Shown piece after piece: positions 1 to 26,878 of a stretch of 64,000 nt of DNA; position 1 is the stretch's first letter; every line of letters starts with the position of its first letter. The notes under the pieces are model-generated. The model was given only the letters and a program-made list of their open reading frames with translations, was not told the origin of the DNA and did not search any database. Origin of the DNA: a virus. Lineage: Duplodnaviria; Heunggongvirae; Uroviricota; Caudoviricetes. The stretch lies in IMG/VR virus record IMGVR_UViG_3300028048_001412, positions 109,858-173,857 of that record; one strand, given 5' to 3'. The position numbers were made by a program, and so were the translations under genes.

Positions 1-492
1 ACTTGTATAAAACATTATGGCATAGAATATTCTTCTCAATCAAAAGAAGTAATAAATAAAATAATAGAATCAAAAAGAAAAAATGGAACATTTAATACAT
101 CAAAACCTGAAGAGAAAATTTACGAAAGATTATGTAAAGATTTCGGAAAAAGAGATATAAAAAGACAATGCAAAGAAGAACGATACCCATATATGGTTGA
201 TTTTTATATTAAATCAAAAGATCTGTTCATAGAGTGTAATTTTTCTTGGACTCATGGAAGTCATTGGTTTAATAAGGATTCAAAAGAAGACAGAAAAATC
301 TTACAAAAATGGAAAGAGAAATCTGAAAATTCAGATTTTTATAAAAATGCAATAAAGACATGGTCGAAAAAAGATGTAGAAAAGCGAGATATTGCAAATA
401 AAAATAAACTTAACTATGTAGTATTCTGGATCGAAGGTGATTATGATAAATGGAAAAATAAAAAATATCCTAATAAATTTCAAAATAAATAA
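1..492 (+). CDS. Putative homing endonuclease (paralog family A), 5'-truncated at window edge; C-terminal Vsr/DUF559-like PD-(D/E)xK nuclease domain
   Basis: Frame 1 is open from nt 1. C-terminus RYPYMVDFYIKSKDLFIECNFSWTHGSHWF ... KRDIANKNKLNYVVFW is about 80% nt-identical to the C-termini of 6598..7980, 17541..18503 and 25338..26462. The xECNFxWTHGxHW motif resembles the Vsr DGCFWHGH motif. Confidence 0.6.
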   Translation, partial: TCIKHYGIEYSSQSKEVINKIIESKRKNGTFNTSKPEEKIYERLCKDFGKRDIKRQCKEERYPYMVDFYIKSKDLFIECNFSWTHGSHWFNKDSKEDRKILQKWKEKSENSDFYKNAIKTWSKKDVEKRDIANKNKLNYVVFWIEGDYDKWKNKKYPNKFQNK

Positions 493-493
493 A

Positions 494-506
494 GTATAAT
501 ATAAAT
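494..506 (+). promoter_or_regulatory. GTATAATATAAAT phage promoter-like motif
   Basis: One instance of a motif recurring at least 13 times upstream of + strand genes. Confidence 0.4.
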
Positions 507-545
507 GGAAACACATATCAAAAAACAAAGGAGAATTGAAAAATA

Positions 546-1277
546 ATGATTAAGGAATGTAAAAACTGTTGGTATTTTACAAAATGTCAACAAAAAGACA
601 AAATGGAAACTGTATGTCTAGAATATGAACATACTTTAAAAGGATTTAAGAATTCTAATATTCCTCCTGTTTTATGGAGTAGTAGATCAATCAAAATAGA
701 TCCTAACAATAAAAAACATCAAGAATTAAAAGCATTAGTTAGTGATATGAATGAACTTTACAATAATAATAGAAATATTCTCCTTTATACTCATAATCAA
801 TACGGAGATAATTTAAATGGTTGGATGATTAAAACTCTTCAAAATTATATCTTTGCTTTTAGAAAATATCAATTCAATAATGAGAACGAAAATAGTGTAT
901 TTTATATAGATGCAGGTAAATTTAAAGAGATATGTCAATTACAAGTAGATAATAAAGAATTATTTTTATCTACTATAAATAAAATGCAAGGTTGTGAATT
1001 ATTAGGAATAGACAACATAGATAAGTTAAAAGGATTAAAGAATTTTAACTTTCAAGAGAAATTAGTAAATATATTAGAATATAGACAATACAGAAAACAT
1101 AAATCTAATATATTTACTTCACATATTCCTCCTTCATTATTAGATGCTAAAAATAATGATGAATGGAATTCATGGATAAATTATTTAACTAGATTTATTC
1201 TTAAAGATGGTATAAATGGACAATATGAAATTGAAGAAGATGGTGAAAATAGTTATAATGCAGGAGGTCAAGAATAA
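546..1277 (+). CDS. Hypothetical protein; stop overlaps the helicase start (TAATG), possible helicase-associated or loader protein
   Basis: 243-aa ORF with an AAGGAG RBS. Translational coupling to the DnaB-like gene. No recognisable motifs. Confidence 0.45.
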   Translation: MIKECKNCWYFTKCQQKDKMETVCLEYEHTLKGFKNSNIPPVLWSSRSIKIDPNNKKHQELKALVSDMNELYNNNRNILLYTHNQYGDNLNGWMIKTLQNYIFAFRKYQFNNENENSVFYIDAGKFKEICQLQVDNKELFLSTINKMQGCELLGIDNIDKLKGLKNFNFQEKLVNILEYRQYRKHKSNIFTSHIPPSLLDAKNNDEWNSWINYLTRFILKDGINGQYEIEEDGENSYNAGGQE

Positions 1278-2731
1278 TGAGTGAGATAAGAACAGAAAGA
1301 AATAATTCTGAATTAAAAATTCTTACTAAAATTATAAAAGATAAAGATTATAATATTCTTTCTGAAAATAATTTAACAAAGAATGATTTTAAAGATTATT
1401 TTGTTAAAGAAGGCCAGAAATTATATTTAATTTCAGATATAGTAGATTATATTGACTCTTATTATAAAACCTCTTCTCAAGTTCCAGACGAAACTACTAT
1501 TAAAACTAAATTTCCATTACTTGAATTAAATAATGATGATTATTCTAGTGAAAATAAAACATTTATAGATAATTTGAAGAAATTAAATAAAGATGATGAT
1601 TTAATAAATGCAATGACTCAAGCTAATAGAATTCATCAAACTAAAGGTGCAAGAGATGCTATTAGTTTTCTTCAAGGAGAATTGGAAAAGTTAGAAGGTA
1701 GAGGTTCTGAAGTTAAAGGATATGACTTAATTCAAAATGTAGATGACAGAATTAATGAATATGAAGAATTATTAAAAAATCCAAATAAAGCATTTGTAAC
1801 TACTGGATTAAAAGAATTAGATAATTGCATTAAAGGTTGGTTAAGAGATGAAGAATTAGTTCTTATTCAAGGTAGATCTGGTCAATCTAAAACATTCTTC
1901 TTATTAAAGTTTTTATGGGAAGCATTTGCTAGAGGAGAAAATGTTTTATTATTTGAACCAGAAATGTCTTCTAAAGTTATTGGATATAGATTAGACGTAT
2001 TAGCAGATGATAATCATGAGATATCTAATTTTTCTTTATTAAGAGGTGAAAGATTTATAGATGCTAATAAATATAAAGCTTGTTGTGCTAGATTAAAAGA
2101 ACATAAGAATCATTTCTATTATTTATGTCCTGATGATTTTGAAGATGGTTTAACTGTTTCTCAATTAAAAGCTTGGTGTAAAAAGAATAAAATTACTATA
2201 GTGGGAATAGATGGTATTGAAATTCCTGATATTATAGATGAAAGAAAAGGTTTCAAGGACGAAGAACACCTTCAGTTAACACATATAGCCGCTGATCTTC
2301 TTAGGATGTCTAAAACTTTAAAAGTTCCTGTTATTGTTACTACTCAAGCTAAAAGAACTGATAAGAAAGAAGAGTTAAGTATTAATACTATTGGCTCTTC
2401 CTACGGCATGGCGAGAAAATGCACCATCATGATTACAATTAAGAAAGAAGATAGAGAAGTAGAAATAAGAATTGAAAAGAGTAGAAATAGTACTGATAAT
2501 CAAGTTCTTAATTACAAGGTTGATCTCGATAAAGGTATATTTGAATGGGATGGAATGCCTACAATAGATGAACAAACAAATCAATCTATAAATAATAGAG
2601 AGGCTCAACCTATAACAGACGTAGATAAGGATAAGTCAGGAATAACAGAAGAGAATATAAAATTTACAGACGAGAATGGCAAACCTTACGGAGAAGATGT
2701 CTTTCTAGATGGAGGAAAAGGATTAGAATAA
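1277..2731 (+). CDS. DnaB-like replicative DNA helicase
   Basis: Walker A GRSGQSKT, and the RecA-fold C-terminal domain motif VPVIVTTQAKR (compare DnaB SQLNR). 484 aa. Confidence 0.7.
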   Translation: MSEIRTERNNSELKILTKIIKDKDYNILSENNLTKNDFKDYFVKEGQKLYLISDIVDYIDSYYKTSSQVPDETTIKTKFPLLELNNDDYSSENKTFIDNLKKLNKDDDLINAMTQANRIHQTKGARDAISFLQGELEKLEGRGSEVKGYDLIQNVDDRINEYEELLKNPNKAFVTTGLKELDNCIKGWLRDEELVLIQGRSGQSKTFFLLKFLWEAFARGENVLLFEPEMSSKVIGYRLDVLADDNHEISNFSLLRGERFIDANKYKACCARLKEHKNHFYYLCPDDFEDGLTVSQLKAWCKKNKITIVGIDGIEIPDIIDERKGFKDEEHLQLTHIAADLLRMSKTLKVPVIVTTQAKRTDKKEELSINTIGSSYGMARKCTIMITIKKEDREVEIRIEKSRNSTDNQVLNYKVDLDKGIFEWDGMPTIDEQTNQSINNREAQPITDVDKDKSGITEENIKFTDENGKPYGEDVFLDGGKGLE

Positions 2732-3804
2732 TGAAAATTACAGATAAATATATTTTAGAAGAAATGTTGGATTCTGTAAATTCTCCTAATGGAAGAAAAG
2801 CAATAGATACAATATTAAAAGGAAAACCATTACAATTATTCTATTGGAGTAGAAATGATGACGGAAAGAAAACTACTTATGAATTAATGGATGGACAACA
2901 AAGAACTCTATCTATTATGCAATTTTTAGACCATAAATTTAGTATTTTAGATGCAAATGGAAATACTCAATATGAAAATACTATATCAAAAGAAGATAAA
3001 GATAAGATTTTAGATTATGATTTATCAGTTTATATATGCGAAGGAACAGATCAAGAAAAATTAGAATGGTTTAATACAATAAATATAGCAGGATTAAAAT
3101 TAACAGATCAAGAATTAAGAAATGCAGTATATACAGGACCTTGGTTAACAGATGCGAAGTTACACTTTAGTAAACGAAATTGTGCCGGATATAAATTAAC
3201 TGAAAAATATTTTAACGGAGATCCAGCAAGACAAGAATTATTAGAGAAATTCTTAAAAGGAATAATAGAAAAAGAAGGATTAAAAACAATAGAAGATTAT
3301 ATGGCTCAACATAGAAATGATAAAGATGCAGATGAATTATGGCAATATGCAAACGATATAATCAATTGGATAAATAAAACTTTCACAAATTATAGAAAAA
3401 TAATGGATGGATTAGATTGGTGTCATTTATATAATAAATATCATCAAAATACATATAATACTCAAGATATAGAAAAAACAATAGATAAATTAATGAAAGA
3501 TGAAGATATAGAGAAAAAGAAAGGCATTTATGAATATGTATTAGATGATAAAAATCCATTCCGTGAGAAATATCTGAATTTGAGAGCCTTTCTAGATAAA
3601 GATCAACAAACAGCATATGAAAAACAAAAAGGAATATGTCCAATATGTGGAAAACATTTTAATAAAGATGAAATGGAAGCAGATCATATAATTCCTTGGA
3701 GTAAAGGAGGTTCAACAGATATAAATAACCTTCAAATGCTATGTAAATCTTGTAATAGACAAAAATCATCAGGAAATGCACCTAAAACTACTAAAAAGAA
3801 ATAA
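2731..3804 (+). CDS. DUF262 (ParB/Srx-like, DGQQR) + DUF1524/HNH nuclease fusion, GmrSD-like type IV restriction-like protein
   Basis: N-terminal DGQQRTLSI motif. C-terminal EADHIIPWSKGGSTDINNLQMLCKSCNRQKS HNH motif. Start overlaps the helicase stop (TAATG). Confidence 0.7.
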   Translation: MKITDKYILEEMLDSVNSPNGRKAIDTILKGKPLQLFYWSRNDDGKKTTYELMDGQQRTLSIMQFLDHKFSILDANGNTQYENTISKEDKDKILDYDLSVYICEGTDQEKLEWFNTINIAGLKLTDQELRNAVYTGPWLTDAKLHFSKRNCAGYKLTEKYFNGDPARQELLEKFLKGIIEKEGLKTIEDYMAQHRNDKDADELWQYANDIINWINKTFTNYRKIMDGLDWCHLYNKYHQNTYNTQDIEKTIDKLMKDEDIEKKKGIYEYVLDDKNPFREKYLNLRAFLDKDQQTAYEKQKGICPICGKHFNKDEMEADHIIPWSKGGSTDINNLQMLCKSCNRQKSSGNAPKTTKKK

Positions 3805-3829
3805 CTCCAATAAATTTATCATTTTTAAA

Positions 3830-5527: not shown

Positions 5528-5939
5528 AAATTAGAAGTTCAATGAACTACCATTAACCTAAAGGTATAATGGCTTCCGTTAAATAGTTCATTAGACTCAG
5601 TTTTGAGAAATCTTAACTACGTTAGAAAAATCATAACACCTTCGATTACCGGACTAGATTGAAGCTCTGTTGAATATTTTTAAGTTAGGTCGGAGTAAGA
5701 AAAGCCTTGTGAAATATTTGTAAAAAGTTTTTCTAACGTTGTCGAAGTCAAGTAGGATTTTTGATTTGGTAACAGAATCAAAATACTCATTAAGGTTTTA
5801 AGTCTTGAACCTGCTTGCAGCAAAAATCAAGACTATTTCAAAAATTATCTTTCAATTCATCTATTTGTCTAAAGACTAAATAGTTTTCTTGAAAGAAAAA
5901 ATATAAAAAATTGTATTCTAAAAAGGAGAAAAAACAGTT
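5528..5939 (+). other. 412-nt non-coding region, GC-richer than surroundings, multiple nested inverted repeats; candidate structured RNA / regulatory leader / origin
   Basis: No ORF. Hairpins include CCATTAACCTAAAGGTATAATGG, AGTCTTGA...TCAAGACT and AACGTTAGAAAA...TTTTCTAACGTT. The first 40 nt are shared with 56991-57030. Confidence 0.4.
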
Positions 5940-6521
5940 ATGAAAATAGCAATGATGAATGACAAAATGTTGCAATTAGATGATTGCAGTATTATTTTCA
6001 AGAATTTTTCAGGAAAAGCAGGAATGTACAATAAGGAAGGAGATAAGAATTTCTGTATTAAGGTAGATGAGGAATTAATATCTCAATTGGAAAACTGCAA
6101 GAACAAAGATGGTAAGGGTTGGAATGTAAAACTTTATACTCCAAAGCCAGATGATAAGTTTAAGGATAAGGATTTAACTCCATTCCACTATCTTAAGGTT
6201 AAAATTGGTAATGGTAATATTCCAGTTCAAATTGAAATTGATGGCGTTACTTCAGTTTGTCAAGATATTACTTCTTTAGATGGATTGCATATAGACCATG
6301 CAGACGTAGATTTGAGCGCATATGATGGTATCGTTAATGGAGCACCTTTTAGAGCCGCTTACTTAAAAGGAATGAAGGTATATGCAACTAGAAGTTCAAG
6401 ATTTGACACAATAGGAATGACTCCTTCAACTCCAGTATCAAATAATGCAACAGCACCAGTAACACCACAAGAAGCATTAGGTGATGACTATGAAAATTTA
6501 GACAATGTAGAGATTGTCTAG
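5940..6521 (+). CDS. Hypothetical protein; candidate single-stranded DNA-binding protein (acidic C-terminal tail)
   Basis: Strong AAAAGGAGAAAA RBS. Acidic tail EALGDDYENLDNVEIV. Followed by an intrinsic terminator. Sits in the replication module. Confidence 0.3.
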   Translation: MKIAMMNDKMLQLDDCSIIFKNFSGKAGMYNKEGDKNFCIKVDEELISQLENCKNKDGKGWNVKLYTPKPDDKFKDKDLTPFHYLKVKIGNGNIPVQIEIDGVTSVCQDITSLDGLHIDHADVDLSAYDGIVNGAPFRAAYLKGMKVYATRSSRFDTIGMTPSTPVSNNATAPVTPQEALGDDYENLDNVEIV

Positions 6522-6536
6522 TTAAAAAATAAATAA

Positions 6537-6575
6537 GAAAGAGGGATTTTAATAATCTCTCTTTCTCTTTTTATT
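6537..6575 (+). terminator. Rho-independent terminator
   Basis: GAAAGAGGGATT/AATCTCTCTTTC hairpin followed by a T-run. Confidence 0.6.
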
Positions 6576-6597
6576 TATATAAAAGGAAAATAAAATT

Positions 6598-7980
6598 TTG
6601 AAAATTAATGATGAATATATTATTAAAATATTTACTAGAAAAGATAATAGAATAGATAGCCATAAATGTAATGATAAATGGTTGAATGAAAATATAGAAA
6701 TCAAAAAATATTTAGAATCTCGATTTGATTATTTCAATGGAAAATATTCAGATGTAATAAATCTTATAAAAAATAAAGTTAAAGAATGGCCTAAATGCCC
6801 GATTTGTAAAGAATATTTAAATCATCCTGAAAATAAGCATTGTTCTTATGCTTGCGAACAAAAAGATCCTTTAGTTAATGATAAAAAGAAAAATACTTAT
6901 TTAAATAATTATGGTGTAGAACATCCTTTAAAATCAAAAGAAATAAAGAAAAAAATAAAACAGACTAATTTGCAAAAATATGGAGTAGAAAATCCTTCTC
7001 AAAACGAAGAAATTAAAGAGAAGAAAAGACAAACTAGTTTAAAAAATTATGGAGTTGATAATCCATTTAAATCTGAAGATATTAAAGAAAAAATAAAAGA
7101 AATAAATTTACAAAGATATGGATTTGAAAATGTCTTTCAAAATGAACAAATAAGACAAAAATATAAAAGCACATGTAAAGAAAAATACGGTGTAGAAAAT
7201 CCATCTCAATCTGAAAAAATAAAGAAAAAGAAAGAAAATACTAATTTAAAAAACATAGGATTCAAAAATCCATTACAATCAGAAGAAATAAAGAAAAAAG
7301 TAAAAAATACTAACTTACAAAAATACGGTGTAGAAAATCCATCTCAATTGGAAGAAATTAAGAAGAAAAAAGAAGATTCTTGTCTGAAACATTATGGAGT
7401 AAAGAGTCCATTACAATCGGAAGAAGTAAAAGAGAAAAGTAAAAAAACATGTCTTAAAAAATATGGAGTTGAAGTAGCAGCTAAATCAGAAATAGTAAAA
7501 GAGAAATTATCAAAAACTCTTTCAACTATGGAATCAAAAGAAAAACAATATAATACCAAAAAGAAAAATAATTCCTTTAATACTTCAAAACCCGAAGAAG
7601 AAATATATGAAAAATTATGTAAACAATTAGGAAAAAATAATATTTTAAGAAATTATAATAAAGATTCTAGATATCCGTTTATGGTGGATTTCTACATTAA
7701 ATCAAAAGATCTATTCATTGAATGTAATTTTAACTGGACACATGGTGAACATTGGTTTAATGAAAACTCTAAAAGCGATTTAAAAATTTCACAAAAATGG
7801 AACGAAAAATCTAAAGATTCAGATTTTTATAAAATAGCATTAAAAGTATGGACAGTAAAAGATGTAGAAAAACGAGATACTGCCAATAAAAACGGATTAA
7901 ATTACATAGTATTTTGGAAAGAATCTGATTATGAAAAGTGGATTAGTAAAGGATGTCCAAAGAAATTTCAAAATAAATAG
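6598..7980 (+). CDS. Putative homing endonuclease (family A): N-terminal Cys/His zinc finger, nine tandem ~25-aa YGVENPxQSEEIKKK repeats, C-terminal Vsr/DUF559-like nuclease; TTG start
   Basis: N-terminus KINDEYIIKIF shared with 17541 and 25338. CPICKEYLNHPENKHCSYAC zinc finger. Repeats from aa ~98-305. C-terminus DFYIKSKDLFIECNFNWTHGEHWF. Confidence 0.65.
   Translation: MKINDEYIIKIFTRKDNRIDSHKCNDKWLNENIEIKKYLESRFDYFNGKYSDVINLIKNKVKEWPKCPICKEYLNHPENKHCSYACEQKDPLVNDKKKNTYLNNYGVEHPLKSKEIKKKIKQTNLQKYGVENPSQNEEIKEKKRQTSLKNYGVDNPFKSEDIKEKIKEINLQRYGFENVFQNEQIRQKYKSTCKEKYGVENPSQSEKIKKKKENTNLKNIGFKNPLQSEEIKKKVKNTNLQKYGVENPSQLEEIKKKKEDSCLKHYGVKSPLQSEEVKEKSKKTCLKKYGVEVAAKSEIVKEKLSKTLSTMESKEKQYNTKKKNNSFNTSKPEEEIYEKLCKQLGKNNILRNYNKDSRYPFMVDFYIKSKDLFIECNFNWTHGEHWFNENSKSDLKISQKWNEKSKDSDFYKIALKVWTVKDVEKRDTANKNGLNYIVFWKESDYEKWISKGCPKKFQNK
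6889..7520 (+). repeat. Nine tandem ~75-nt coding repeats (TxLxKYGVENPxQSEEIKKKxKx)
   Basis: Periodic repeats are visible at both the protein and nucleotide level inside 6598..7980. Confidence 0.7.
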
Positions 7981-7991
7981 GGATAAAATAA

Positions 7992-8885
7992 ATGGAAAAA
8001 TTTGAAGGAATAACAAAAGAACAATTATTAGAAGAATGTTTAAATTATCCATTTCCAGGTAATACTAAATGGGAATCTAATAATCCGATATGGGATTCAT
8101 TTGTTCCTCCAAATAAAAGTCCTAGAGAAGCATGGAAAGATAGAGAATGTTTAAAAAAAGCGATAGATAATTTATATTGGATATTAGATAAATCGATAAA
8201 AGAAAATAAATATGAAGATTTTGTAGAAAAACATAGAAAAGAATTTAAAAACTTTAAAAAAGGCGATAAATTAAGATTAATGCAATTAATACTTTTTAGA
8301 TTTACTGTAGTAAAAATAGCACCTAAAGTAACAGCATTAAAAGCAACTGATATGTTAAAGATAATAGATGAAAGTGAAATTGATTTATCATCTGGAGTAT
8401 ATTGTCCAATGGCCGGATTTGGAGGAATAGTAGAAGCAAGCAAAAGATGGTTTAAAGAAAGAAAATTAGATTATGAAGATAAAATAGAAAGTTATGATAT
8501 AAATAAATCATTTGTAGATTATTATCATTTCACGGGACAAAGAGATATATTTGAAAAAGTAATAAAAACCAATAAAATATGTATAGTATGTCCACCATTT
8601 GGAAAACAATTTGAACATTGGAAAGGAACTCCTGATAAAATGTCAGATATAACATTTCTAGAATGGTATAATATAATAAAAAAACAAATAAAAGCGAAAG
8701 ATTACATAATAATTGGTCCTGAAATAGATAAAACAGGGACAGGATCTAATAAAGGATTAGATTCTCAAGGTAAAAAAATTAATGGATTATTTTCCAAAAC
8801 AATAGGAATTCAAAGATGGACAGATGATTTAGTAAAAGACGCAATAAATAATCCTGAAAAATACAAAAAAATATTAAAAAATTAA
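7992..8885 (+). CDS. Hypothetical protein; weak resemblance to gamma-class N6-adenine methyltransferase motifs
   Basis: VYCPMAGFGG (FxGxG-like) then ~68 aa later IVCPPFG (xPPF). Cys in place of D/N/S is atypical. Confidence 0.25.
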   Translation: MEKFEGITKEQLLEECLNYPFPGNTKWESNNPIWDSFVPPNKSPREAWKDRECLKKAIDNLYWILDKSIKENKYEDFVEKHRKEFKNFKKGDKLRLMQLILFRFTVVKIAPKVTALKATDMLKIIDESEIDLSSGVYCPMAGFGGIVEASKRWFKERKLDYEDKIESYDINKSFVDYYHFTGQRDIFEKVIKTNKICIVCPPFGKQFEHWKGTPDKMSDITFLEWYNIIKKQIKAKDYIIIGPEIDKTGTGSNKGLDSQGKKINGLFSKTIGIQRWTDDLVKDAINNPEKYKKILKN

Positions 8886-8886
8886 G

Positions 8887-8899
8887 GTATAATATAAAT
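8887..8899 (+). promoter_or_regulatory. GTATAATATAAAT motif immediately abutting the polymerase ATG
   Basis: Motif ends at 8899 and the ATG is at 8900. Confidence 0.35.
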
Positions 8900-10753
8900 A
8901 TGAATGAATTTACATCTTTTCACAAATTAATAGAAGATAAGAAATTAGATGAAAACGTAGCAAAACAGTTAATATTTTATGATGCTGAAGTTTTTCAAAA
9001 TGATTGGATGTTCGTAATAATAAATCCTTATACAAAAGAAACTAAAGTAATAGCTAATAATAGGGATGAATTATTTAAATATTTTTTGTCTCATAAGGAA
9101 TTTATTTGGATAGGATATAATACAACTCATTATGACCAATATATATTAAAATGTATATTGATGAATCTTAATCCTAAAGAAATGAGTGATTTCTTAATTA
9201 AAGATGGAGAAATGGGATGGAACTTCTTCAGAAAGAAAAAAATATACACTGCTGATTTAGCTCAATGTGAATATAATAACTATGATTTATTCCAAATAAA
9301 TGATGGTGGATTAAAAAAACTAGAATCATTTATGGGAAATGACATAGAAGAAACAGATGTGGATTTTGATATAGATAGAAAATTAACAGAAGAAGAATTA
9401 AAACAAACTGAAAAGTATTGTATTCATGATGTAGAACAAACAATAGAAGTATTTGTAAAAAGAATAGATTCATTTAATGCAAGATTGAGTTTATTAAAAA
9501 TATTCAATCTTAATTATAGTTATATGAATAAATCTGATGCTCAATTAACTGCAACTATATTAGGAGCAAAAAGACCTGCAGGAAGAGGAGAAGATGAATT
9601 TAATATAACATTACTTCCAAATATTAAGTTAGATAAATATAAAGAAGTATTAGAATGGTATAAAAATCCAGAAAATAGAGATTATAAGAAATCTTTAAAT
9701 ATAGATGTAGCAGGGGTTCCTCATACATTTGCTTGGGGTGGATTACATGGAGCAATAAAGAAATTTCACGAAGATGGATACTTTGTAAATATGGACGTTA
9801 CTTCATATTATCCTTCTTTAATGATAGAATATAATTTATTATCTAGAAACGTAGATCAACCAAGTAAATTTAAAAATATTTATAATCAAAGAGTATTATT
9901 TAAGAAACAAAAAGATGTAAGAGAAAAACCATTAAAAATTCCGCTAAATGCAACTTATGGTGCTTGTAAAGATAAATTTAGTCAATTATATGACCCTCTT
10001 CAAGCTAATAACGTCTGTTGTAATGGGCAATTATTTTTATTGGATTTAATAGAAAAATTAGAACCATATTGCAAAATAATACAAAGTAATACCGATGGTA
10101 TTTTAATTCAAGTAGTTCCAGCAACTAAAGCTCAATGGGTTAAAATATATGAAGTTACTCAAGAATGGCAAAAAAGAACAAAAATGAATCTTGATTTTGA
10201 AAGATTTGTTTCTGTATATCAAAAAGACGTAAATAACTATATCATTGTAGGAGAAGATGGTAAATATAAATCAAAAGGCTCATATGTTAAAAAGCAAAAT
10301 GATTTAGATAACGATCTTCCAGTGGTAAATAAAGCAATGAAAGATTATATGATAAATAAAGTTCCAGTAGAGGATACTATAAATAATTGTGATAATTTAT
10401 TAGATTTTGCTAAAACGGTTAAAGTTACAAGTGCTTATTTATATGGAGAAAAAGGAACATTTGATGATAATGGAGTAGAACAATACGAAAAACAAACCAA
10501 TAAAACTTTTAGAATATTTGCATCTAAAAATCCTAAAGATGGTGGAATATATAAAGCAAAAATGAAAGATAAGAAAGATAAAGAAACTGGAAATATTACT
10601 AAAGAATTATCTCATGATAAATTTGCTAATACTCCAATAAAGTGCTTTTTTAGAAATGGAAATATTCAAGGTGAAAAATGTCCAGAAGATTTAGATAAAC
10701 AATGGTATATTGATTTAGCAAATGAAAGATTAAAACAATTTGGTGTAAAATAA
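8900..10753 (+). CDS. Compact family-B DNA polymerase with 3'-5' exonuclease motifs
   Basis: Exo I FYDAEVF, Exo II YNTTHYDQYIL, Exo III YCIHDVEQT. Motif A DVTSYYPSLM, motif B KIPLNATYGACKDKFS, motif C region IIQSNTDGILI (NTD instead of DTD). Confidence 0.6.
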   Translation: MNEFTSFHKLIEDKKLDENVAKQLIFYDAEVFQNDWMFVIINPYTKETKVIANNRDELFKYFLSHKEFIWIGYNTTHYDQYILKCILMNLNPKEMSDFLIKDGEMGWNFFRKKKIYTADLAQCEYNNYDLFQINDGGLKKLESFMGNDIEETDVDFDIDRKLTEEELKQTEKYCIHDVEQTIEVFVKRIDSFNARLSLLKIFNLNYSYMNKSDAQLTATILGAKRPAGRGEDEFNITLLPNIKLDKYKEVLEWYKNPENRDYKKSLNIDVAGVPHTFAWGGLHGAIKKFHEDGYFVNMDVTSYYPSLMIEYNLLSRNVDQPSKFKNIYNQRVLFKKQKDVREKPLKIPLNATYGACKDKFSQLYDPLQANNVCCNGQLFLLDLIEKLEPYCKIIQSNTDGILIQVVPATKAQWVKIYEVTQEWQKRTKMNLDFERFVSVYQKDVNNYIIVGEDGKYKSKGSYVKKQNDLDNDLPVVNKAMKDYMINKVPVEDTINNCDNLLDFAKTVKVTSAYLYGEKGTFDDNGVEQYEKQTNKTFRIFASKNPKDGGIYKAKMKDKKDKETGNITKELSHDKFANTPIKCFFRNGNIQGEKCPEDLDKQWYIDLANERLKQFGVK

Positions 10754-17540: not shown

Positions 17541-18503
17541 GTGAATATTAATGATGAATATATATTATCTTTAGATATATTTGATACTAAAGGAAGACTT
17601 AAAGCAATATCATTTGAAAAAATACTTGAGAACAATTCTGAAATTAAAGAATATCTTAAAAATAGATATAATGATAAATTTGTAGATTATAAAACCGCTT
17701 TATGGAGAATTAGAAATAATATAGATGAATGGCCTAAATGTCCAACTTGTGGAAAATTATTAGATAATTTAGAACATAAACATTGTTCTCCAAGATGTGC
17801 TTCATTAGATCCGGAAGTGCAAAAGAAAAATGAAGAAACTAATTTAAAATTATATGGTGTTAGAAATGTATTTTGTTTAGAATCAGAACATAAAAAAGCA
17901 AAGAAAGAATGGGTAAAATCAATAGTTAAGAAATATGGTTCATTAAAGAATTTCTATAAAATACGTTCAGATTTAGGAAATAAAACGATTAAAGAAAAAA
18001 TAGAAGAAGATGAACATTTTTGGGATAAAAGAAATGAAAAGAAAAAAGAAACTATAGATTCTATATTAAAGAATGATCCTGATTGGTATAAAAGATTAAA
18101 AGAGAAAGAGATTGAAACTAAAAAGAAAAATAATTCTTTAAATGCTTCGAAAGAAGAAGATAGAATATATGAAAAATTATTAAATATATTTAACAAAGAT
18201 GATATTATAAGAGAATATTCTGAAAAAAGATATCCATTTCATTGCGACTTTTATATTAAATCAAAGGATTTATTCATTGAATGTAATTTTCATTGGACTC
18301 ATGGCTTTCATTGGTTTGATAAAAATAATAAATCTGATTTGGAAATAGTACAAAAATGGAAAGATAAAAATACTAAATTCTATGATATCGCAATAGAAGT
18401 TTGGACTAAGCGTGATATACTAAAACGAGATACTGCATTAAAAAATAAATTGAATTATTTGGTATTTTGGAACACAAAAGAATTTAAAAATTACAGTTTT
18501 TAA
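17541..18503 (+). CDS. Putative homing endonuclease (family A, short form with ~2 degenerate repeats); GTG start
   Basis: N-terminus NINDEYI. CPTCGKLLDNLEHKHCSPRC zinc finger. C-terminus RYPFHCDFYIKSKDLFIECNFHWTHGFHWF. Confidence 0.6.
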   Translation: MNINDEYILSLDIFDTKGRLKAISFEKILENNSEIKEYLKNRYNDKFVDYKTALWRIRNNIDEWPKCPTCGKLLDNLEHKHCSPRCASLDPEVQKKNEETNLKLYGVRNVFCLESEHKKAKKEWVKSIVKKYGSLKNFYKIRSDLGNKTIKEKIEEDEHFWDKRNEKKKETIDSILKNDPDWYKRLKEKEIETKKKNNSLNASKEEDRIYEKLLNIFNKDDIIREYSEKRYPFHCDFYIKSKDLFIECNFHWTHGFHWFDKNNKSDLEIVQKWKDKNTKFYDIAIEVWTKRDILKRDTALKNKLNYLVFWNTKEFKNYSF

Positions 18504-18611: not shown

Positions 18612-19757
18612 ATGGGATTAACAAAAGAAGAAATCGCTAAAAAAATGGCGAAGATGCAAGAGAAGATGGCTAAATCATATGGCGATACTGTAGTTAAAGG
18701 AACTGAAGTTGAAAGAGTATCTTTTTTTCCTAGCGGTATTGCAAGTATAGATAGAGCATTAGGGGGAGGTTGGGCTGTCGGTAGATTATGTTCAATATAT
18801 GGTTATCCATCAGCTGGAAAAACAACTTTCTTATTGCAAAGTATAGCAAATATGCAAAAAATTGATCCAAGAGCTTGTTTATATGCAGATGCAGAAGCAT
18901 CATTGGATTTAGATTATGCTCAAAGATTAGGAGTAGATTTAGATAGACTTATAGTAGTTCAAGCTGATACTGCAGAAAATATGACTACTATTCTTCGTAA
19001 TTATTGTTTAGAAGAATATGAAGAAAAAGGAAAGACTATAAAAAATGATATGTTTGGTTGTATATCATTAGCAGTACTAGATTCTACTAATGCTTTAGTT
19101 CCAGCCGCTGACTATGGAAAAGAAGTTAATAGAACAGGTGGAACAATGGCAGGAACAGCAGGATTATTAAGTAACTGGGTTAAACAAATGTATGGTCCGT
19201 TAAGAAAATCAGGAATGACTCTAATATGTATAGAACAAGTAAGAGATAATGTAGGTGAATTATATGGTCCAAAAATTAAAGTCGGAAACGGTTGGGGTGT
19301 TGCATTTGCCGCTTCACAAAGACTTGAATTAGTTAAAGGCCAAAATATAATGAATAAAGATGATTGGGCTGGACAACATATTAAATTCAAAGTTGTTAAA
19401 AATAAATGTGCAGTTCCTCAAATTAAAGGTGAAACTATTATGTCACCAGGAAGAGGATTTGATGCTGAAGCCGATGAAGCTTACTTCTTACAAGAATCTG
19501 GATTATTTGTAAGACTTAATAATATAAAATGGTCTTATACAACTAATCAAGGAGAAGTAATTGAAATAAAAGGAAAAGATAATATAATACCTACTCTTAA
19601 AGAAAAAGGATTATATGATGAAGCTGTAGCTAATGCAAAAAGATTAACTGTAGAAAGAGCAAATAAAGGTCCTAAAGGTTCAGAAGAATTAGATTATGCT
19701 AATGCTGAAGGAGAAGAAGGTGCTAAAAATGCTCCGGATGAAGAACCAGTAGTATAA
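18612..19757 (+). CDS. RecA/UvsX-like recombinase
   Basis: SIDRALGGGWAVGRLCSIYGYPSAGKTTFLLQ is near-canonical for the RecA N-terminal core and Walker A. Confidence 0.85.
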   Translation: MGLTKEEIAKKMAKMQEKMAKSYGDTVVKGTEVERVSFFPSGIASIDRALGGGWAVGRLCSIYGYPSAGKTTFLLQSIANMQKIDPRACLYADAEASLDLDYAQRLGVDLDRLIVVQADTAENMTTILRNYCLEEYEEKGKTIKNDMFGCISLAVLDSTNALVPAADYGKEVNRTGGTMAGTAGLLSNWVKQMYGPLRKSGMTLICIEQVRDNVGELYGPKIKVGNGWGVAFAASQRLELVKGQNIMNKDDWAGQHIKFKVVKNKCAVPQIKGETIMSPGRGFDAEADEAYFLQESGLFVRLNNIKWSYTTNQGEVIEIKGKDNIIPTLKEKGLYDEAVANAKRLTVERANKGPKGSEELDYANAEGEEGAKNAPDEEPVV

Positions 19758-20443: not shown

Positions 20444-21193
20444 ATGGTAAAAGATGGAAAAATAGCATTAGTTGAAATTTTTAAATCTATTGATGGAGAA
20501 GGTTTTCACTCAGGTCAACCTACTGTTTTCATAAGAACTTTCGGATGCAATCTCCACTGCAGTTTCTGTGATACTTCATATTCTTTAAATGAAGAAGAAT
20601 ATAAGAAAACATATAATAAAGATTTATTATGGATGACAGCTGAAGAAATAGTAAATAAGTGTAATGAATTGGAAAAAGATTTTAAATATAAATCTGTTTG
20701 TTTAACAGGTGGAGAACCTTTAATAGAAGAAAATAAAGATTTTATGTTAAATCATCTTATACCATTATTATTAGATAATAAATATGCAGTGAATATAGAA
20801 ACAAATGGTGCTGTAGATTATAAACCATATAAAGATAAATTCGGAGAACCTGTAATATTAGACCCTTATGGAAATAGATATGGAGTAAGTATTATAGCAG
20901 ATTATAAACTTCCATATTCTAAAATGAATAAATTGATGAAATGGGAAAATTTATCAATTTATAGTGAATATGATTTAATTAAAATGGTAATTAGTGATGA
21001 TCCTGAAGATTGGAAAGAGTTAGAAAAAGTATGTCAATCAGGAACCAAAGCAAAGTTGTATTTAAGTCCTTGTTTTGGAGAAGTGACAATGTCAAAAATA
21101 CCGGAATTTGTAATGAATCATCCAGAATATAATATCACGGCTCAATTGCAAATCCATAAATTCTTCTGGGACAAAGATAAGATAGGAGTGTAA
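20444..21193 (+). CDS. queE: 7-carboxy-7-deazaguanine synthase (radical SAM)
   Basis: IDGEGFHSGQPTVFIRTFGCNLHCSFCDT (CxxxCxxC and the QueE-type N-terminus). Confidence 0.8.
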   Translation: MVKDGKIALVEIFKSIDGEGFHSGQPTVFIRTFGCNLHCSFCDTSYSLNEEEYKKTYNKDLLWMTAEEIVNKCNELEKDFKYKSVCLTGGEPLIEENKDFMLNHLIPLLLDNKYAVNIETNGAVDYKPYKDKFGEPVILDPYGNRYGVSIIADYKLPYSKMNKLMKWENLSIYSEYDLIKMVISDDPEDWKELEKVCQSGTKAKLYLSPCFGEVTMSKIPEFVMNHPEYNITAQLQIHKFFWDKDKIGV

Positions 21194-21197
21194 AGAA

Positions 21198-22085
21198 ATG
21201 ATGAATATAAATCAAGAATTATTAGAATTTATTAAAGACAATTATCAGAAGAAATTCGGAAGTTTAGATACATTTGAAGAAAATTATAAATTATATTGTT
21301 CTTTACCTTCTTTTAAAGCAAGTGAAAATTTTCATGAAGTATTTGGACAATTAAATGTAATAAATTCAGAAGATCCAAATGCTTTAGATAAAGAGAGTGA
21401 ATTTGTAAATAGAGAAGAAAAATTAGGAGATAATACTAAATATACTGATTATTTAGATTGTCAAAAAGAATTAAAACCTGAAATACATTGGATAATGAGA
21501 TCTGTCGCTCAATTCTATATGATAAAAGTATTTGATGCATTAAAAATAGATCAAAAAGATCCAAATATAGCAATAAATGCTTTAGGTAAAGGAACTCCAG
21601 GCAGAATTGTTAAAATGTGGAGTGGCGCTAATCCAGAAGATACATCAGAATTATTATCAGGAAGGTGGAATAAAGAACCTGCGCTATCAGTATTTCCAAA
21701 TGATGGTTCAACTACAGGAGGAGAAATAATCACTACTCCTATTACTAAAGAAGTAGATGTAGTTGCTGTTTGTAGTCACCATTTTCTTCCATTTTCAACA
21801 TTAGAACCAAATGCAAAAGCAATAATTACATATATACCACAAAAGCATTTAATTGGAATATCTAAATTGCAAAGATTTACTAAATGGGCTAGTGCAAGAG
21901 GATGGTTACAAGAAGATTTAACAACTTATTTAGGAACAACAATTAAAAGAATAAGTGAATCTGAAGATGTAAAAGTAGAACTGATCAATTTAGTTCATGG
22001 ATGTGAAAAGTTTAGAGGTGCTTATTCTAAAAATGGTAATTTAACAACTTATTATAAATCAGGAGTGTTCAAAGATGTCAAGTAA
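21198..22085 (+). CDS. folE: GTP cyclohydrolase I with ~100-aa N-terminal extension
   Basis: GTPGRIVKMW, VCSHHFLPF (CEHH zinc motif), TYIPQKHLIGISKLQRF, HGCEKFRG. Confidence 0.85.
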   Translation: MMNINQELLEFIKDNYQKKFGSLDTFEENYKLYCSLPSFKASENFHEVFGQLNVINSEDPNALDKESEFVNREEKLGDNTKYTDYLDCQKELKPEIHWIMRSVAQFYMIKVFDALKIDQKDPNIAINALGKGTPGRIVKMWSGANPEDTSELLSGRWNKEPALSVFPNDGSTTGGEIITTPITKEVDVVAVCSHHFLPFSTLEPNAKAIITYIPQKHLIGISKLQRFTKWASARGWLQEDLTTYLGTTIKRISESEDVKVELINLVHGCEKFRGAYSKNGNLTTYYKSGVFKDVK

Positions 22086-24552: not shown

Positions 24553-25314
24553 ATGAAAGCAATAGTTAGTCTTTCTGGCGGTAGAGATTCTGCAACTTGT
24601 TTAGGAGTGGCTGTAGAAAAATATGGAAAAGAAAATGTATTTGCTATGGGATTTGAATATGGAAGTACTCACCCACAAGAATTAGAAGCAGCACAAAAAA
24701 TAGCTGATTATTATGGCGTTCCTTATCAAATAGTTAAAATAGATCCAAGTATATTTGAAGGTTCAGGTTGTTCTATGTTAGAATCAGAAGGATTATCTCC
24801 TGAAAAAGGAAAAACATATGAGCAATTACAAGCAGAAAATGAAGGAAAAGTAGCAACTTATGTTCCAGCAAGAAATACATTATTTTCAGCATATGTATTA
24901 GCAAAAGCAGAATCATTAGCCCAAAAATATAATGATGAAGTAACTATTATTTTAGGTCAACACGCAGATGATTCAGGATTTTATGTAGATGAAAATGGAG
25001 TAGAACATTTAGATTATACTAAATCAGCATATCCAGATACTTCAGTAGAATTTGTAGAAGCTTTTGCAAAAGTAGCTGAAATTAGTTCGGTTGGAAAAGT
25101 AAAATATTGGTCACCATTTATAAAGAATCATAAATATGAATTATTACAAATAGGTTCAAAATTAAAGAAACCTGTTCCATATAATTTATGTATATCTTGT
25201 TATAAACCAGAATTAGGTGAAGATGGTAAATATCATGAGTGCGGATTATGTGCAACCTGCTTGGACACTTTGAAAGCATTAAAGAAAGCAGGATTACCAG
25301 AAAAATTAAATTAA
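24553..25314 (+). CDS. queC: 7-cyano-7-deazaguanine (preQ0) synthase
   Basis: PP-loop SLSGGRDS. C-terminal zinc-cluster cysteines (CISC...C, CGLCATC). Confidence 0.8.
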   Translation: MKAIVSLSGGRDSATCLGVAVEKYGKENVFAMGFEYGSTHPQELEAAQKIADYYGVPYQIVKIDPSIFEGSGCSMLESEGLSPEKGKTYEQLQAENEGKVATYVPARNTLFSAYVLAKAESLAQKYNDEVTIILGQHADDSGFYVDENGVEHLDYTKSAYPDTSVEFVEAFAKVAEISSVGKVKYWSPFIKNHKYELLQIGSKLKKPVPYNLCISCYKPELGEDGKYHECGLCATCLDTLKALKKAGLPEKLN

Positions 25315-25337
25315 AATAAAGAAAAGGAATAATTTAT

Positions 25338-26462
25338 TTGAAAATTAATGATAAATACATCTTGAAAATTTTTATTGGAGAGAATCAAAGAGTTAATGGT
25401 TGGAGATGTTCTTATAATTGGATAAATGAAAATCCAGAAATCAAAGAATATCTAGAGACTAGATTTAATTATTTCAATGGAAAATACGGAGATGTAGTTA
25501 GATTAATAAGAGATGGATTTGATGAATGGCCTAAATGTAAAACATGTAATGAATTTTTAAAAGAACCATTTACTCAAGATAAACAACCTTCATATCATAT
25601 TTATTGCAGCAATAAATGTAAGAATATAAATGAAGAAAAGAAACAGAAATCTATAAATACTTGTTTGGAAAAATACGGAACTCCAGTTTCTTCTCAATCC
25701 GAAATAGTTAAAGAAAAAGAGAGAAATACTATAAATTCTAGAACTGAAGAAGAGAAAAATAAAATAACTTCTAGAGCTAGAAAAACTTATATTAAAAAAT
25801 ATGGAGTAAATTGGATTTCAAAATCAAAGGAATTTAAAGATAAATTCAAAGAGACTTGGGATAATAAATCAGAAGAAGAATTACAAGACATAAAAAATAA
25901 AAAAGAAAATACTTGCTTAGAAAAATACGGCGTGAAATATTATTTTGAAACAGAAGAATTTCAAGAAAAATCAAAACAAACTATTCTAGATAAATACGGA
26001 GTAGAGTACACGCATCAATGCAAAGAAATATTAGATAAAGTTAATGAAACTAAACATAAAAATGGAACATTTAATACATCGAGGCCTGAAGAAGAATTTT
26101 ATAAATATCTTTTAAATAATTTTTCGGAAAATGATGTAAAAAGACAATATTATAAAGATTCTAGATATCCATTCAGATGTGATTTCTATATTAAATCTTT
26201 GGATTTATTTATAGAGTTAAATCTTTCTTGGGTTCATGGTGGACATTGGTTTAATAAAAATTCAAAAGAAGATTTAAAAATATTAGATAAATGGAAAAAT
26301 AAAAATACAGATTATTATAATGCGGCTATAAATACATGGACGAAGAGAGATTTATTAAAAAAGAAAACAGCAATAAAAAATAAGATTAATTATCTTGTTT
26401 TCTGGACTGAAAAAGAAATAAATAATTTAATAAAAGGAGAAAATAAATTATGTATAGTTTAA
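25338..26462 (+). CDS. Putative homing endonuclease (family A, ~4 degenerate repeats); TTG start; inserted between queC and queD
   Basis: N-terminus KINDKYILKIF. CKTCNEFL zinc finger. C-terminus RYPFRCDFYIKSLDLFIELNLSWVHGGHWF. Confidence 0.6.
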   Translation: MKINDKYILKIFIGENQRVNGWRCSYNWINENPEIKEYLETRFNYFNGKYGDVVRLIRDGFDEWPKCKTCNEFLKEPFTQDKQPSYHIYCSNKCKNINEEKKQKSINTCLEKYGTPVSSQSEIVKEKERNTINSRTEEEKNKITSRARKTYIKKYGVNWISKSKEFKDKFKETWDNKSEEELQDIKNKKENTCLEKYGVKYYFETEEFQEKSKQTILDKYGVEYTHQCKEILDKVNETKHKNGTFNTSRPEEEFYKYLLNNFSENDVKRQYYKDSRYPFRCDFYIKSLDLFIELNLSWVHGGHWFNKNSKEDLKILDKWKNKNTDYYNAAINTWTKRDLLKKKTAIKNKINYLVFWTEKEINNLIKGENKLCIV

Positions 26463-26878
26463 GAATTAAATTCGAAATTGCCTACGCTCATAGATTAATG
26501 ACTTCCTATTCCGCCAGTTGCAGGGGACTCCACGGACATAACGGAGTGTGTGAAATATTAATAGGAAATGATAAATTAAATGAAGATATGATGGTGGTAG
26601 ATTTCAAAAAAATTAAAGAAATTGTGAAAGAAACTTTAGAAGAAAAATATGATCATTCAACTATTCTTTATAAAGATGATCCATTAGCAGAAGCAGTAAA
26701 ACCTTTCTGTAATCCAGCTAAATTTCATTTATTTGAAAAGAATCCAACAGCTGAATATATGGCTGAAAGATTTACAAATGAATTACAAGAAATATTAGAT
26801 AAAGAGTTACCGGGAACTAAAGTATTATCATTTAGTTTTGAAGAAACATCAAATAATAAAGCAATATTTGAAAGTTAA
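26450..26878 (+). CDS. queD: 6-carboxy-5,6,7,8-tetrahydropterin synthase
   Basis: FEIAYAHRL and CRGLHGHN motifs. Confidence 0.8.
   Translation: MYSLRIKFEIAYAHRLMTSYSASCRGLHGHNGVCEILIGNDKLNEDMMVVDFKKIKEIVKETLEEKYDHSTILYKDDPLAEAVKPFCNPAKFHLFEKNPTAEYMAERFTNELQEILDKELPGTKVLSFSFEETSNNKAIFES

Follow-up and report, generated by a model that had tools for sequence, protein, structure and literature searches.

Four related genes are scattered over a 64,000-nt stretch of DNA (hereafter the 64-kb window) from a large, uncultured phage represented by a 245-kb contig of 25% G+C, and one of them is immediately followed by a methyltransferase-like gene. What these genes encode, and whether they are mobile, is the question raised by this locus. 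A sequence-only reading had proposed a four-member paralog family of homing-endonuclease-like genes. The family was recovered with exactly the ORF boundaries given there, all on the + strand, and tblastn detected exactly four copies in the window, with no fragments or frameshifted remnants. The features referred to below are as follows.

1..492, + strand: paralog 1, 3′ part, cut by the window edge; its translation contains the last repeat and a complete predicted Vsr-like nuclease domain
6536..6566, + strand: terminator-like hairpin with a 13-bp stem and a T tail, just upstream of paralog 2
6580..6597, + strand: ribosome-binding region AAAAGGAAA, part of the duplicated unit as judged from DNA similarity between paralogs
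6598..7980, + strand: paralog 2, 460 aa, TTG start
Paralog 2, aa 1-90: N-terminal helical domain and putative Cys4 zinc ribbon
Paralog 2, aa ~99-311 (nt 6876-7473 by Tandem Repeats Finder): nine 23-aa DUF7487 units
Paralog 2, aa ~326-450: predicted Vsr-like nuclease (E333, D364, E375, N377, H382, H385, D422, K425)
7992..8885, + strand: methyltransferase-like partner, 297 aa, 11 nt (7981-7991) after paralog 2
17541..18503, + strand: paralog 3, 320 aa, GTG start; putative zinc ribbon, two degenerate repeats and an intact predicted nuclease domain
18612-19757: RecA/UvsX gene, directly downstream of paralog 3
24553..25314, + strand: queC, left flank of paralog 4 (Pfam QueC, E 3e-37)
25338..26462, + strand: paralog 4, 374 aa, TTG start; four repeats
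26450..26878, + strand: queD (PTPS family), right flank of paralog 4 (Pfam PTPS, E 7e-25)

Paralogs, start codons and expression

Full-length identity to copy 2 was 44-48% for copies 3 and 4 and 66% for the truncated copy 1 (66-69% over the part common to copies 1 and 2), and the C-terminal ~140 aa were 53-69% identical across the window copies, with 49 invariant columns. Paralog 2 is less similar to the cassette-type nucleases of other phages (34-37% identity) than to the other window copies (44-66%), and a closer kinship with the former was therefore rejected. Between paralogs, DNA similarity sets in ~18 nt before the start codon and continues to the stop codon, so that the duplicated unit includes the ribosome-binding site. 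The window copies occupy intergenic slots among replication, recombination and deazaguanine-pathway genes (the last encoding QueC, QueD, QueE and GTP cyclohydrolase). The slots lie between the SSB and polymerase genes, upstream of uvsX, and between queC and queD, where the final 13 nt of paralog 4 overlap the start of queD.

The three complete copies do start with TTG, GTG and TTG, respectively, as had been read from the sequence. No in-frame ATG is present in copies 3 and 4, and the first in copy 2 is at codon 311; the conserved protein sequence starts immediately after the TTG or GTG, and the starts are preceded, at a distance of 8-10 nt, by an AAAGG(A) ribosome-binding site. Non-ATG starts are possible in at most ~10% of the other ~68 window ORFs of at least 100 codons. 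As a trait of the whole family the non-ATG start was rejected: homologs sampled in three other phage lineages begin with ATG, and the non-ATG starts, which are genuine, are confined to the source phage. The hairpin upstream of paralog 2 was the one terminator-like site observed in 5800-9000, versus 0.6 expected from shuffles. Sigma-70 promoter scans were uninformative: the DNA is AT-rich, and shuffled versions of it gave as many matches. In RNA folding, the regions of the three start codons were no more structured than shuffles, and thus gave no evidence of sequestration of the ribosome-binding site. The weak TTG/GTG starts, together with the upstream terminator in the case of copy 2, probably hold the protein level low.

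Domain architecture and the predicted nuclease

The N-terminus common to the paralogs takes the form (K/N)IND(E/K)YI. A conserved cysteine motif is also present as proposed; its earlier wording, CxxC...H..C, was imprecise, and the actual motif, CxxC-x11-17-CxxxC, is that of a putative four-Cys ribbon. In the family, C67, C70 and C82 of this ribbon are nearly invariant, and matches to zinc-ribbon models were weak (DUF2116, E 0.21; YacG, E 0.002).

The period of the tandem repeats turned out to be 23 aa (69 nt), not the 25 aa first counted: Tandem Repeats Finder gave a period of 69 and 8.7 copies for copy 2, in which the Y-G positions occur nine times at exact 23-aa spacing. The paralogs differ in repeat number, as claimed; the numbers are nine in copy 2, two (degenerate) in copy 3, four in copy 4 and at least one in copy 1, instead of the 0-9 initially given. 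The repeats correspond to Pfam DUF7487 (PF24308; E 1e-45 for copy 2 and 9e-21 for copy 4), which was below Pfam detection in copy 3, where there are only two degenerate units. Their suggested kinship to a homing-endonuclease-associated repeat was correct, DUF7487 being present in the Hef-like proteins of phage LIMEstone1 (PMC3296691). No window copy gave a Pfam match to NUMOD. Across the family the repeat number ranges from 0 to 14, and a few positions are hypervariable, the variable positions of the unit being 7, 10, 16, 18 and 20. With its regular 23-residue units and changing length, the array is a candidate scaffold for modular recognition of DNA, and repeat number may set the length of the target, as first suggested; paralog 3, with just two degenerate repeats, may be a poor DNA binder.

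The C-terminal domain of ~130 aa noted in the sequence-only reading is indeed common to the paralogs. Its AF2 model (pLDDT 91.7) has an alpha-beta-beta-beta-alpha-alpha-beta topology, and the best structural match was Vsr, which supports the earlier assignment to a Vsr-like branch of the PD-(D/E)xK superfamily. No Pfam model, Vsr and DUF559 included, reached threshold for the domain in the window copies; among 28 diverse family members, one matched Vsr (PF03852, E 0.002) and one DUF559 (PF04480, E 0.04), both below threshold. A profile search of PDB sequences with the nuclease domain returned nothing below E 0.01 (the marginal matches were 3k93 at E 0.015-0.15 and one de novo NTF2), and 3r3p was not found at E up to 10. 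As the sequence-level links to Vsr/DUF559 are not significant, the fold assignment is based on predicted structure. In the alignment of the 28 members E21, D52, D59, E63, H70, D110 and K113 are invariant, and all four window copies, with intact ORFs, retain every invariant catalytic position. The spacing D52-13-N65-5-H70 equals D51-13-H64-5-H69 of Vsr, and the two are placed in register by hhalign of the domain profile against the single Vsr sequence, an alignment that is not significant (E 0.11) and was used for register only. N65 falls at the position of Vsr H64 and of N208 in I-Bth0305I, whose corresponding catalytic positions are E170/D196/N208/H213/D222 (PMC3239194). The C-terminal domain is predicted to be a Vsr-like (EDxHD-type) PD-(D/E)xK domain, and as such would cut DNA.

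Mobility, the partner gene and rival explanations

Paralog 4 separates queC from the PTPS/queD gene, in agreement with the earlier claim that one copy splits this pair. In three related phages queC is directly followed by queD with a gap of 73-100 bp, and one of these three contigs bears a family member elsewhere. The three phages are distant from the source phage (QueC 68-70% and QueD about 30% identical), and the uninterrupted pair indicates an insertion or a deletion, not homing per se. That presence and absence in related phages would reveal mobility had also been proposed, and the Lak phages supported this, as the copies are not fixed everywhere. A clean ~1.16-kb presence/absence was observed there, the copy being present in five genomes (Lak-A1/A2) and precisely absent, with the flanks joined, from ten (nine Lak-B genomes and Lak-C1). 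Of the two outcomes named beforehand as refuting the sequence-only reading, a C-terminal domain without any nuclease-fold match and copies fixed in place in all related phages, neither was obtained. Lak genomes carry 5-8 family copies each. The family comprises ~3,700 clusters at 50% identity, with at least 335 matches in IMG/VR viral contigs, and occurs in jumbo phages, in Lak megaphages and, by structure match, in giant eukaryotic viruses.

A megablast search with 5900-9000 gave no match in the 50,697 phage records, so no near relative was available for this region. For the other three sites, no close relative of the source phage was found in searches with UvsX, the 7992 and 17008 proteins and DNA polymerase: the best UvsX match in viral and metagenome contigs was 47% on a 2.7-kb contig, single queries of viral contigs with the 7992 and 17008 proteins gave no close relative, and the polymerase search gave one 49% relative with uninformative synteny. 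The family genes appear to mark insertion hot spots (between nrdD and nrdG, tail sheath and tail tube, and queC and queD) and would explain broken synteny in large phage genomes.

The product of 7992..8885 belongs to a family with the invariant motifs PMAGFGG (motif I) and CPPF (motif IV). This family itself had no PDB or Pfam match; in hhalign it matched the extensions fused to other nucleases of this type with a probability of 90% and E 1.8e-6, and these extensions match methyltransferases, including Type II methyltransferase models. In at least 22 of 29 IMG/VR loci, the gene in front of the partner homolog encodes a Zn-ribbon/DUF7487 nuclease; in two more loci an HNH-motif ORF takes this place. 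The linkage recurs in unrelated genome contexts, fused versions occur, and a methyltransferase-like domain is fused or adjacent after the nuclease in ~23 of 79 family loci; in the window, copy 2 is the only one with such a neighbour. The nuclease-partner unit was also found between nrdD and nrdG (locus L172) and between the tail sheath and tail tube genes gp18 and gp19 (L175), a slot also used by F-LimVIII. 7992..8885 is predicted to encode a methyltransferase-like protein recurrently paired with such nucleases, an association that is new here and had been missed in the sequence-only reading. A restriction-modification-like logic accommodates the recurrence of this partner no less well than classical homing does, and the pairing and fusion suggest a connection of homing endonucleases with restriction-modification systems.

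We consider it likely that the four genes encode free-standing homing endonucleases of the Hef-like/EDxHD type. The N-terminal helical domain, the putative Cys4 zinc ribbon and the array of 23-residue helix-loop repeats would bind a long DNA site, and the Vsr-like domain would cut it, with conserved Asp/Glu holding the metal and His acting as general base by analogy with Vsr and I-Bth0305I. When the copy-less allele of a co-infecting relative is cut, recombinational repair from the copy-bearing genome would install the gene, along with its own ribosome-binding site, in an intergenic spot beside a conserved gene. Copy 2 and the methyltransferase-like gene would act as a two-gene unit, in which the partner most likely modifies the cassette-bearing genome against cutting.

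The same genes could instead form a restriction-modification-like or exclusion system, in which repeat-guided nucleases degrade DNA without the phage's own modification, such as that of the host or of competing phages, and phage DNA is shielded by the 7992..8885 enzyme and/or by 7-deazaguanine modification. Such exclusion is how T4 endonuclease II, a relative of the GIY-YIG homing enzymes, acts. The methyltransferase-like gene just behind paralog 2, the frequency of pairing and fusion in the sampled loci, the Type II methyltransferase models matched by the fused part, and the QueC, QueD, QueE and GTP cyclohydrolase genes of the window all argue for it. We nevertheless judge it unlikely: three of the four window copies and ~70% of family loci are without an adjacent methyltransferase, the nuclease-partner unit itself sits at classic homing sites (L172, L175), close relatives gain and lose copies one gene at a time, and no PADLOC defence model matched the window proteins. 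It is more improbable still that the genes are domesticated or decaying relics, that is, non-cutting DNA-binding proteins kept or drifting after an old invasion, with copy 3 furthest along. At an identity of only 44-48%, the paralogs must stem from old duplications, most repeats have been lost from copy 3, and the start codons are weak; against this, none of the four copies, whose ORFs are intact, has lost an invariant catalytic position, and the window is free of frameshifted fragments.

Hardly any weight is given to the view of the proteins as Vsr-type nickases that are coupled to a methyltransferase and repair mismatches at modified bases. In the E. coli chromosome, vsr adjoins dcm. Vsr, the best structural match here, repairs T/G mismatches at Dcm-methylated CCWGG sites and is functionally tied to the Dcm methyltransferase (PMC3384342), and the neighbour of copy 2 would fit such a tie. 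However, the columns of the Vsr zinc site (C66, H71, C73, C117) and of its two intercalating Trp residues (W68, W86) are not conserved in the family alignment (residues in part after PMC3239194, register from hhalign), Vsr has nothing that corresponds to the long repeat array, and multiple copies with variable repeats and presence/absence are unlike the behaviour of a repair gene.

Returning to homing endonucleases, we tentatively raise a further possibility, which we regard as doubtful: the nuclease family and the 7992-type protein may constitute a widespread, undescribed type of selfish module in phages, in which a homing endonuclease brings along its own immunity by methylation. The repeat array would steer the nuclease to long sites, and the partner, either separate or fused to the same zinc-ribbon/repeat reader, would mark these sites in the carrier, leaving only naive genomes open to cutting. 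If so, the variable-number 23-residue repeats might be a modular DNA-reading code.

Comparison with known systems

Type IIG/IIL enzymes (BpuSI, DrdV) combine nuclease and methyltransferase in one chain, and are resembled by the fused relatives (P0009, P0031 and others), in which a PD-(D/E)xK nuclease is joined to an amino-methyltransferase-like domain with a CPPY motif. The domain order and the recognition module differ, the fused relatives having an N-terminal zinc ribbon and repeats, and in the window the nuclease and the methyltransferase-like protein are encoded by separate genes. RAP-domain/FASTKD organelle proteins also combine helical repeats with a Vsr-like (RAP) domain, but they are eukaryotic and RNA-binding, their repeats are unrelated, and the match is limited mainly to the nuclease-like domain. 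Vsr (PDB 1cw0) has Asp, position 64 and His 69 in the same register, at 11-12% identity to the window domain; unlike the window genes, it is a single-copy repair gene without a repeat array.

I-Bth0305I (EDxHD; PDB 3r3p) likewise has a Vsr-like catalytic domain C-terminal to a DNA-binding region (PMC3239194, PMC3384342), and the E/D/N/H/D positions are conserved. Its gene lies in a group I intron of recA, and the protein carries NUMOD motifs and acts as a dimer on a 14-bp pseudopalindromic core (known for I-Bth0305I), whereas the window genes are intergenic and encode a putative zinc ribbon and DUF7487 repeats. The EDxHD family includes free-standing members (PMC3384342).

The experimentally active prototype of the Hef-like group is Hef of the T-even-like phage U5 (Sandegren et al. 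2005; PMC2988022, PMC3322345), and, as cited in these two papers, it is for U5 Hef only that cutting close to the resident gene and homing during crosses are reported. Membership of the group was judged here against F-LimIII, VII, VIII and X of the Dickeya phage LIMEstone1, which the LIMEstone1 authors assigned to the Hef-like free-standing homing endonucleases (PMC3296691). In these proteins as in those of the window, a putative zinc ribbon is followed by DUF7487 repeats and then by a predicted Vsr/DUF559-like nuclease, each of the four F-Lim proteins giving a sub-threshold Vsr/DUF559/MTES_1575 match. In both sets the genes are free-standing and multi-copy, in intergenic slots between conserved phage genes, and the window family shares the Hef-like feature of variable presence between related phages. 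Compared with F-Lim, the window nuclease forms a separate larger-insert subfamily, in which ~40 residues separate His from the final Asp and IExN..WTHGxHWF replaces the motif IEFNG.YWH, and the F-Lim proteins have a further, unrelated C-terminal region. In hhalign with F-LimVIII only the D...IExN..H core was aligned (E 0.14, not significant and used for register only), and tblastn of the window nuclease domain against the 50,697 phage records matched Lak phages only. PHROGs 3339 and 12131, annotated as homing endonuclease, match the window proteins. By its predicted structure, a large unannotated protein family gains a fold and a probable activity, and is thereby linked to the little-studied Hef-like homing endonucleases.

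Four paralogous genes and their start codons

The window (G+C 25%) derives from a metagenomic contig of 245,530 bp and carries nearly all of its genes on the + strand. These include replication genes (primase, HD protein, phage ssDNA-binding protein, DNA polymerase and RecA/UvsX), a gene for a Cas4-like exonuclease, and genes for QueE-like protein, GTP cyclohydrolase, QueC and QueD (20444-22085 and 24553-26878), which indicate a 7-deazaguanine pathway; therefore, the phage DNA is probably modified. In a single 357-aa protein (2731-3804), a GmrSD N-terminal (DUF262-type) domain is joined to an HNH nuclease domain. The four ORFs proposed in the sequence-only reading were confirmed at their coordinates and are clearly paralogous.

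Putative nuclease genes and partner gene in the window
1-492, + strand: copy 1, truncated by the window edge
6598-7980, + strand: copy 2
7992-8885: putative methyltransferase-like partner, 11 nt downstream of copy 2
17541-18503, + strand: copy 3, directly upstream of phage recA/uvsX (region to 19757)
25338-26462, + strand: copy 4

Identity to copy 2 was 44-48% over the full length, and the last ~140 residues of the copies were 53-69% identical. The duplicated DNA unit extends from the ribosome-binding site to just beyond the stop codon, and no further copies or fragments were found in the 64-kb window.

The TTG/GTG starts assigned to the three complete copies are genuine, because in-frame ATG is absent from copies 3 and 4 and first occurs at codon 311 in copy 2, the conserved N-terminus starts directly after the TTG/GTG codon, and an AAAGG(A) site precedes that codon by 8-10 nt. 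A non-ATG start is possible in at most ~10% of the other ~68 window ORFs of at least 100 codons. As ATG is the start codon of homologs from three other phage lineages, the non-ATG start is a trait of the paralogs of this phage and not of the nuclease family, and since the three genes are paralogs it may have been inherited a single time. Low translation from these codons is a reasonable supposition; a terminator-like hairpin lies upstream of copy 2, and no RNA structure hiding the start sites of the paralogs was found. Met accounts for 3 of the 1,314 residues of the paralogs, compared with a window background of 2.0% (pooled binomial, 1.5e-8), and is wholly absent from two copies; the wider nuclease family is likewise Met-poor (median 0.9%).

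Predicted nuclease domain, zinc ribbon and repeats

The C-terminal domain has no model of its own in Pfam, PHROG, NCBIfam or PADLOC and constitutes a large unannotated family: an exhaustive profile search returned 3,728 cluster representatives, 3,146 of them with E < 1e-10. Residues E21, Y47, P48, D52, D59, E63, H70, D110 and K113 are invariant in a 28-sequence alignment, where E21/D52/D59/E63/H70/D110/K113 correspond to E333/D364/D371/E375/H382/D422/K425 of copy 2. AlphaFold2 modelled the domain confidently (pLDDT 91.7, pTM 0.80) with the topology alpha-beta-beta-beta-alpha-alpha-beta. The D51-13-H64-5-H69 spacing of Vsr equals D52-13-N65-5-H70 of the family, a register with which hhalign agreed, and the residue set E170/D196/N208/H213/D222 of the EDxHD homing endonuclease I-Bth0305I (PMC3239194) is matched by E21, D52, N65, H70 and D110. 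Since sequence evidence taken alone is weak, the predicted Vsr-like (EDxHD-type) assignment rests on the modelled structure and the motif register.

The repeats of the paralogs are Pfam DUF7487. Their unit, initially taken as 25 aa, is 23 residues (69 nt): Tandem Repeats Finder gave a period of 69 and 8.7 copies in copy 2, where Tyr-Gly pairs recur nine times at exact 23-residue steps. There are four units in copy 4, two degenerate ones in copy 3 and at least one in the truncated copy. The zinc finger also required correction, from CxxC...H..C to CxxC-x11-17-CxxxC. Among 864 unique units drawn from 265 proteins, the repeat consensus is YGVENPxQSxEIKEKIKQTCLEK, best conserved at Y1, G2, K15 and T19 and most variable at positions 7, 16, 20, 10 and 18; the number of units varies from 0 to 14. 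In the full-length predicted model (pLDDT 87.4, pTM 0.42), each repeat forms a 15-residue helix followed by a YGV.NP loop and a short turn, and the repeats build an elongated array, which had no match among solved structures. From their position and by analogy, the zinc ribbon and repeats would bind DNA.

Insertion polymorphism and a recurrent partner gene

The proposal that copy 4 splits queC-queD as a mobile insert is supported by related contigs. Among IMG/VR contigs, four have a QueC of 68-70% identity; three of the four place queD 73-100 bp after queC with no gene between, and one carries a nuclease-family member elsewhere (L128). No close relatives of the window phage were found for the other three insertion sites. 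In Lak megaphages, which have 5-8 family copies per genome, a complete member present in Lak-A2 and four Lak-A1 genomes is precisely absent, with flanks joined, from Lak-C1 and nine Lak-B genomes, and the end of its ORF leads into a stretch with homology to the empty site. Lak phages use a recoded stop codon, which fits the in-frame TAG codons in their family genes (L166 and other Lak loci); because of these codons, table-11 ORF lists split the genes. Lak-B1 also has an extra 1.8-kb segment outside the nuclease family (L168 5777-7611) where Lak-A2 is continuous (L166 2482/2483). In a related phage, the QueE homolog (L002 5374-6915, IMGVR_UViG_3300001525_000584) is split by ~780 bp between alignment residues 42 and 34; the intervening DNA may represent an intron, an intein or some other gene insertion.

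Copy 2 belongs to a two-gene cassette, the second gene of which (7992-8885) probably modifies DNA. Its product had no match in Pfam or PHROG. In about 16 of ~253 nuclease-family representatives, the nuclease domain is followed by ~290 further residues that contain the motifs 'DPCAGWGER' and 'TCPPY'. A profile of these extensions matched methyltransferases (5e71, E 1.8e-5; N4-cytosine DNA methyltransferases, 2e-3), TIGR01177 (2.5e-7), Type II methyltransferase models (3.5e-6) and the 7992 protein itself (probability 90%, E 1.8e-6); 'PMAGFGG' and 'CPPF' are invariant in the 7992 family. As that family alone had no match to PDB sequences, the 7992 protein is regarded with moderate confidence as methyltransferase-like.

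Homologs of the 7992 protein are mostly stand-alone (270-320 residues), and almost always lie right downstream of a homing-endonuclease-like gene in unrelated contexts (7992-8885; L172, L175, L123, L177-L205). A same-strand zinc-ribbon/DUF7487 gene precedes the partner in at least 22 of 29 IMG/VR loci, and an HNH-motif ORF in 2 more. The preceding nuclease module varies by locus: many loci have the window subfamily, L172 has a classical PD...ExK motif and L202 a canonical Vsr-like one. Conversely, a methyltransferase-like domain is fused or adjacent in ~23 of 79 loci found by the nuclease domain. Zinc ribbon, DUF7487, Vsr-like nuclease and the ~290-aa CPPY domain are fused in P0009, P0031, P0038, P0093, P0151 and P0161, and further in P0176, P0188, P0191, P0196, P0208, P0215, P0227, P0236, P0244 and P0253; the 7992-type domain is fused to DUF7487 in P0340 and to NUMOD3 in P0367. 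No description of the 7992-type partner was found in the literature searched.

A DUF7487 gene and partner separate nrdD from nrdG in L172 and the tail sheath gene from the tail tube gene in L175; in LIMEstone1 this sheath/tube slot is occupied by F-LimVIII. Beside these cassettes, the anaerobic ribonucleotide reductase gene nrdD of L172 is split in two by a 272-aa unknown-function ORF (198-3824), and an IS605 OrfB/TnpB-like gene directly follows the tail tube gene of L175 (6609-7652). L123 (127-2195, IMGVR_UViG_3300045988_137511), a region dense in mobile elements, has another Vsr/RAP-like ORF of a different kind, immediately followed by a helicase-like ORF whose N-terminus ends in an intein-like '...ANGLISHNT' motif.

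Homing, restriction-modification and known Hef-like elements

The best-supported interpretation is that the paralogs are free-standing homing endonuclease genes with Hef-like architecture and an EDxHD-type (Vsr-like) nuclease. The main rival, a restriction-modification-like or exclusion function instead of homing, draws on the partner gene and the nuclease-methyltransferase fusions; however, other copies have no partner (in the window it lies beside copy 2 only), classic homing slots are occupied, and gain and loss proceed gene by gene between relatives. The two readings may also be compatible, with a homing element shielding its carrier by methylation.

In whole-protein tblastn, the window genes matched annotated homing endonucleases of Dickeya, Salmonella, Klebsiella, Lactococcus and Campylobacter phages via the repeats. 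In tblastn with the nuclease domain, the window subfamily was found among sequenced phages only in Lak megaphages. BFVD matches were named 'Endonuclease-like protein' or 'Zinc-ribbon-containing protein' and included Marseillevirus, iridovirus and Klosneuvirus. F-LimIII, VII, VIII and X were described as 'Hef-like' free-standing homing endonucleases by the LIMEstone1 authors (PMC3296691), and Hef of phage U5 is reported to cut near nrdB (PMC2988022, PMC3322345). All four F-Lim proteins gave a weak zinc-ribbon match, DUF7487 and a sub-threshold Vsr/DUF559/MTES_1575 match, so the window genes appear Hef-like in architecture. Their nuclease domain forms a separate subfamily. F-LimVIII (L169 1015-2805) and P0127 carry another C-terminal region of 180-285 aa after the nuclease domain, which does not resemble methyltransferases and matched no model. 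The characterised EDxHD enzyme I-Bth0305I targets phage recA, and copy 3 lies directly upstream of recA/uvsX, which may be coincidence or a common target preference.

Homing endonuclease genes are ordinary in large phages, and cultured phages already have proteins of this architecture with a Hef-like annotation. What is new is the fold-level assignment for a very large unannotated nuclease subfamily, its documented insertion polymorphisms, and the recurrent methyltransferase-like partner.
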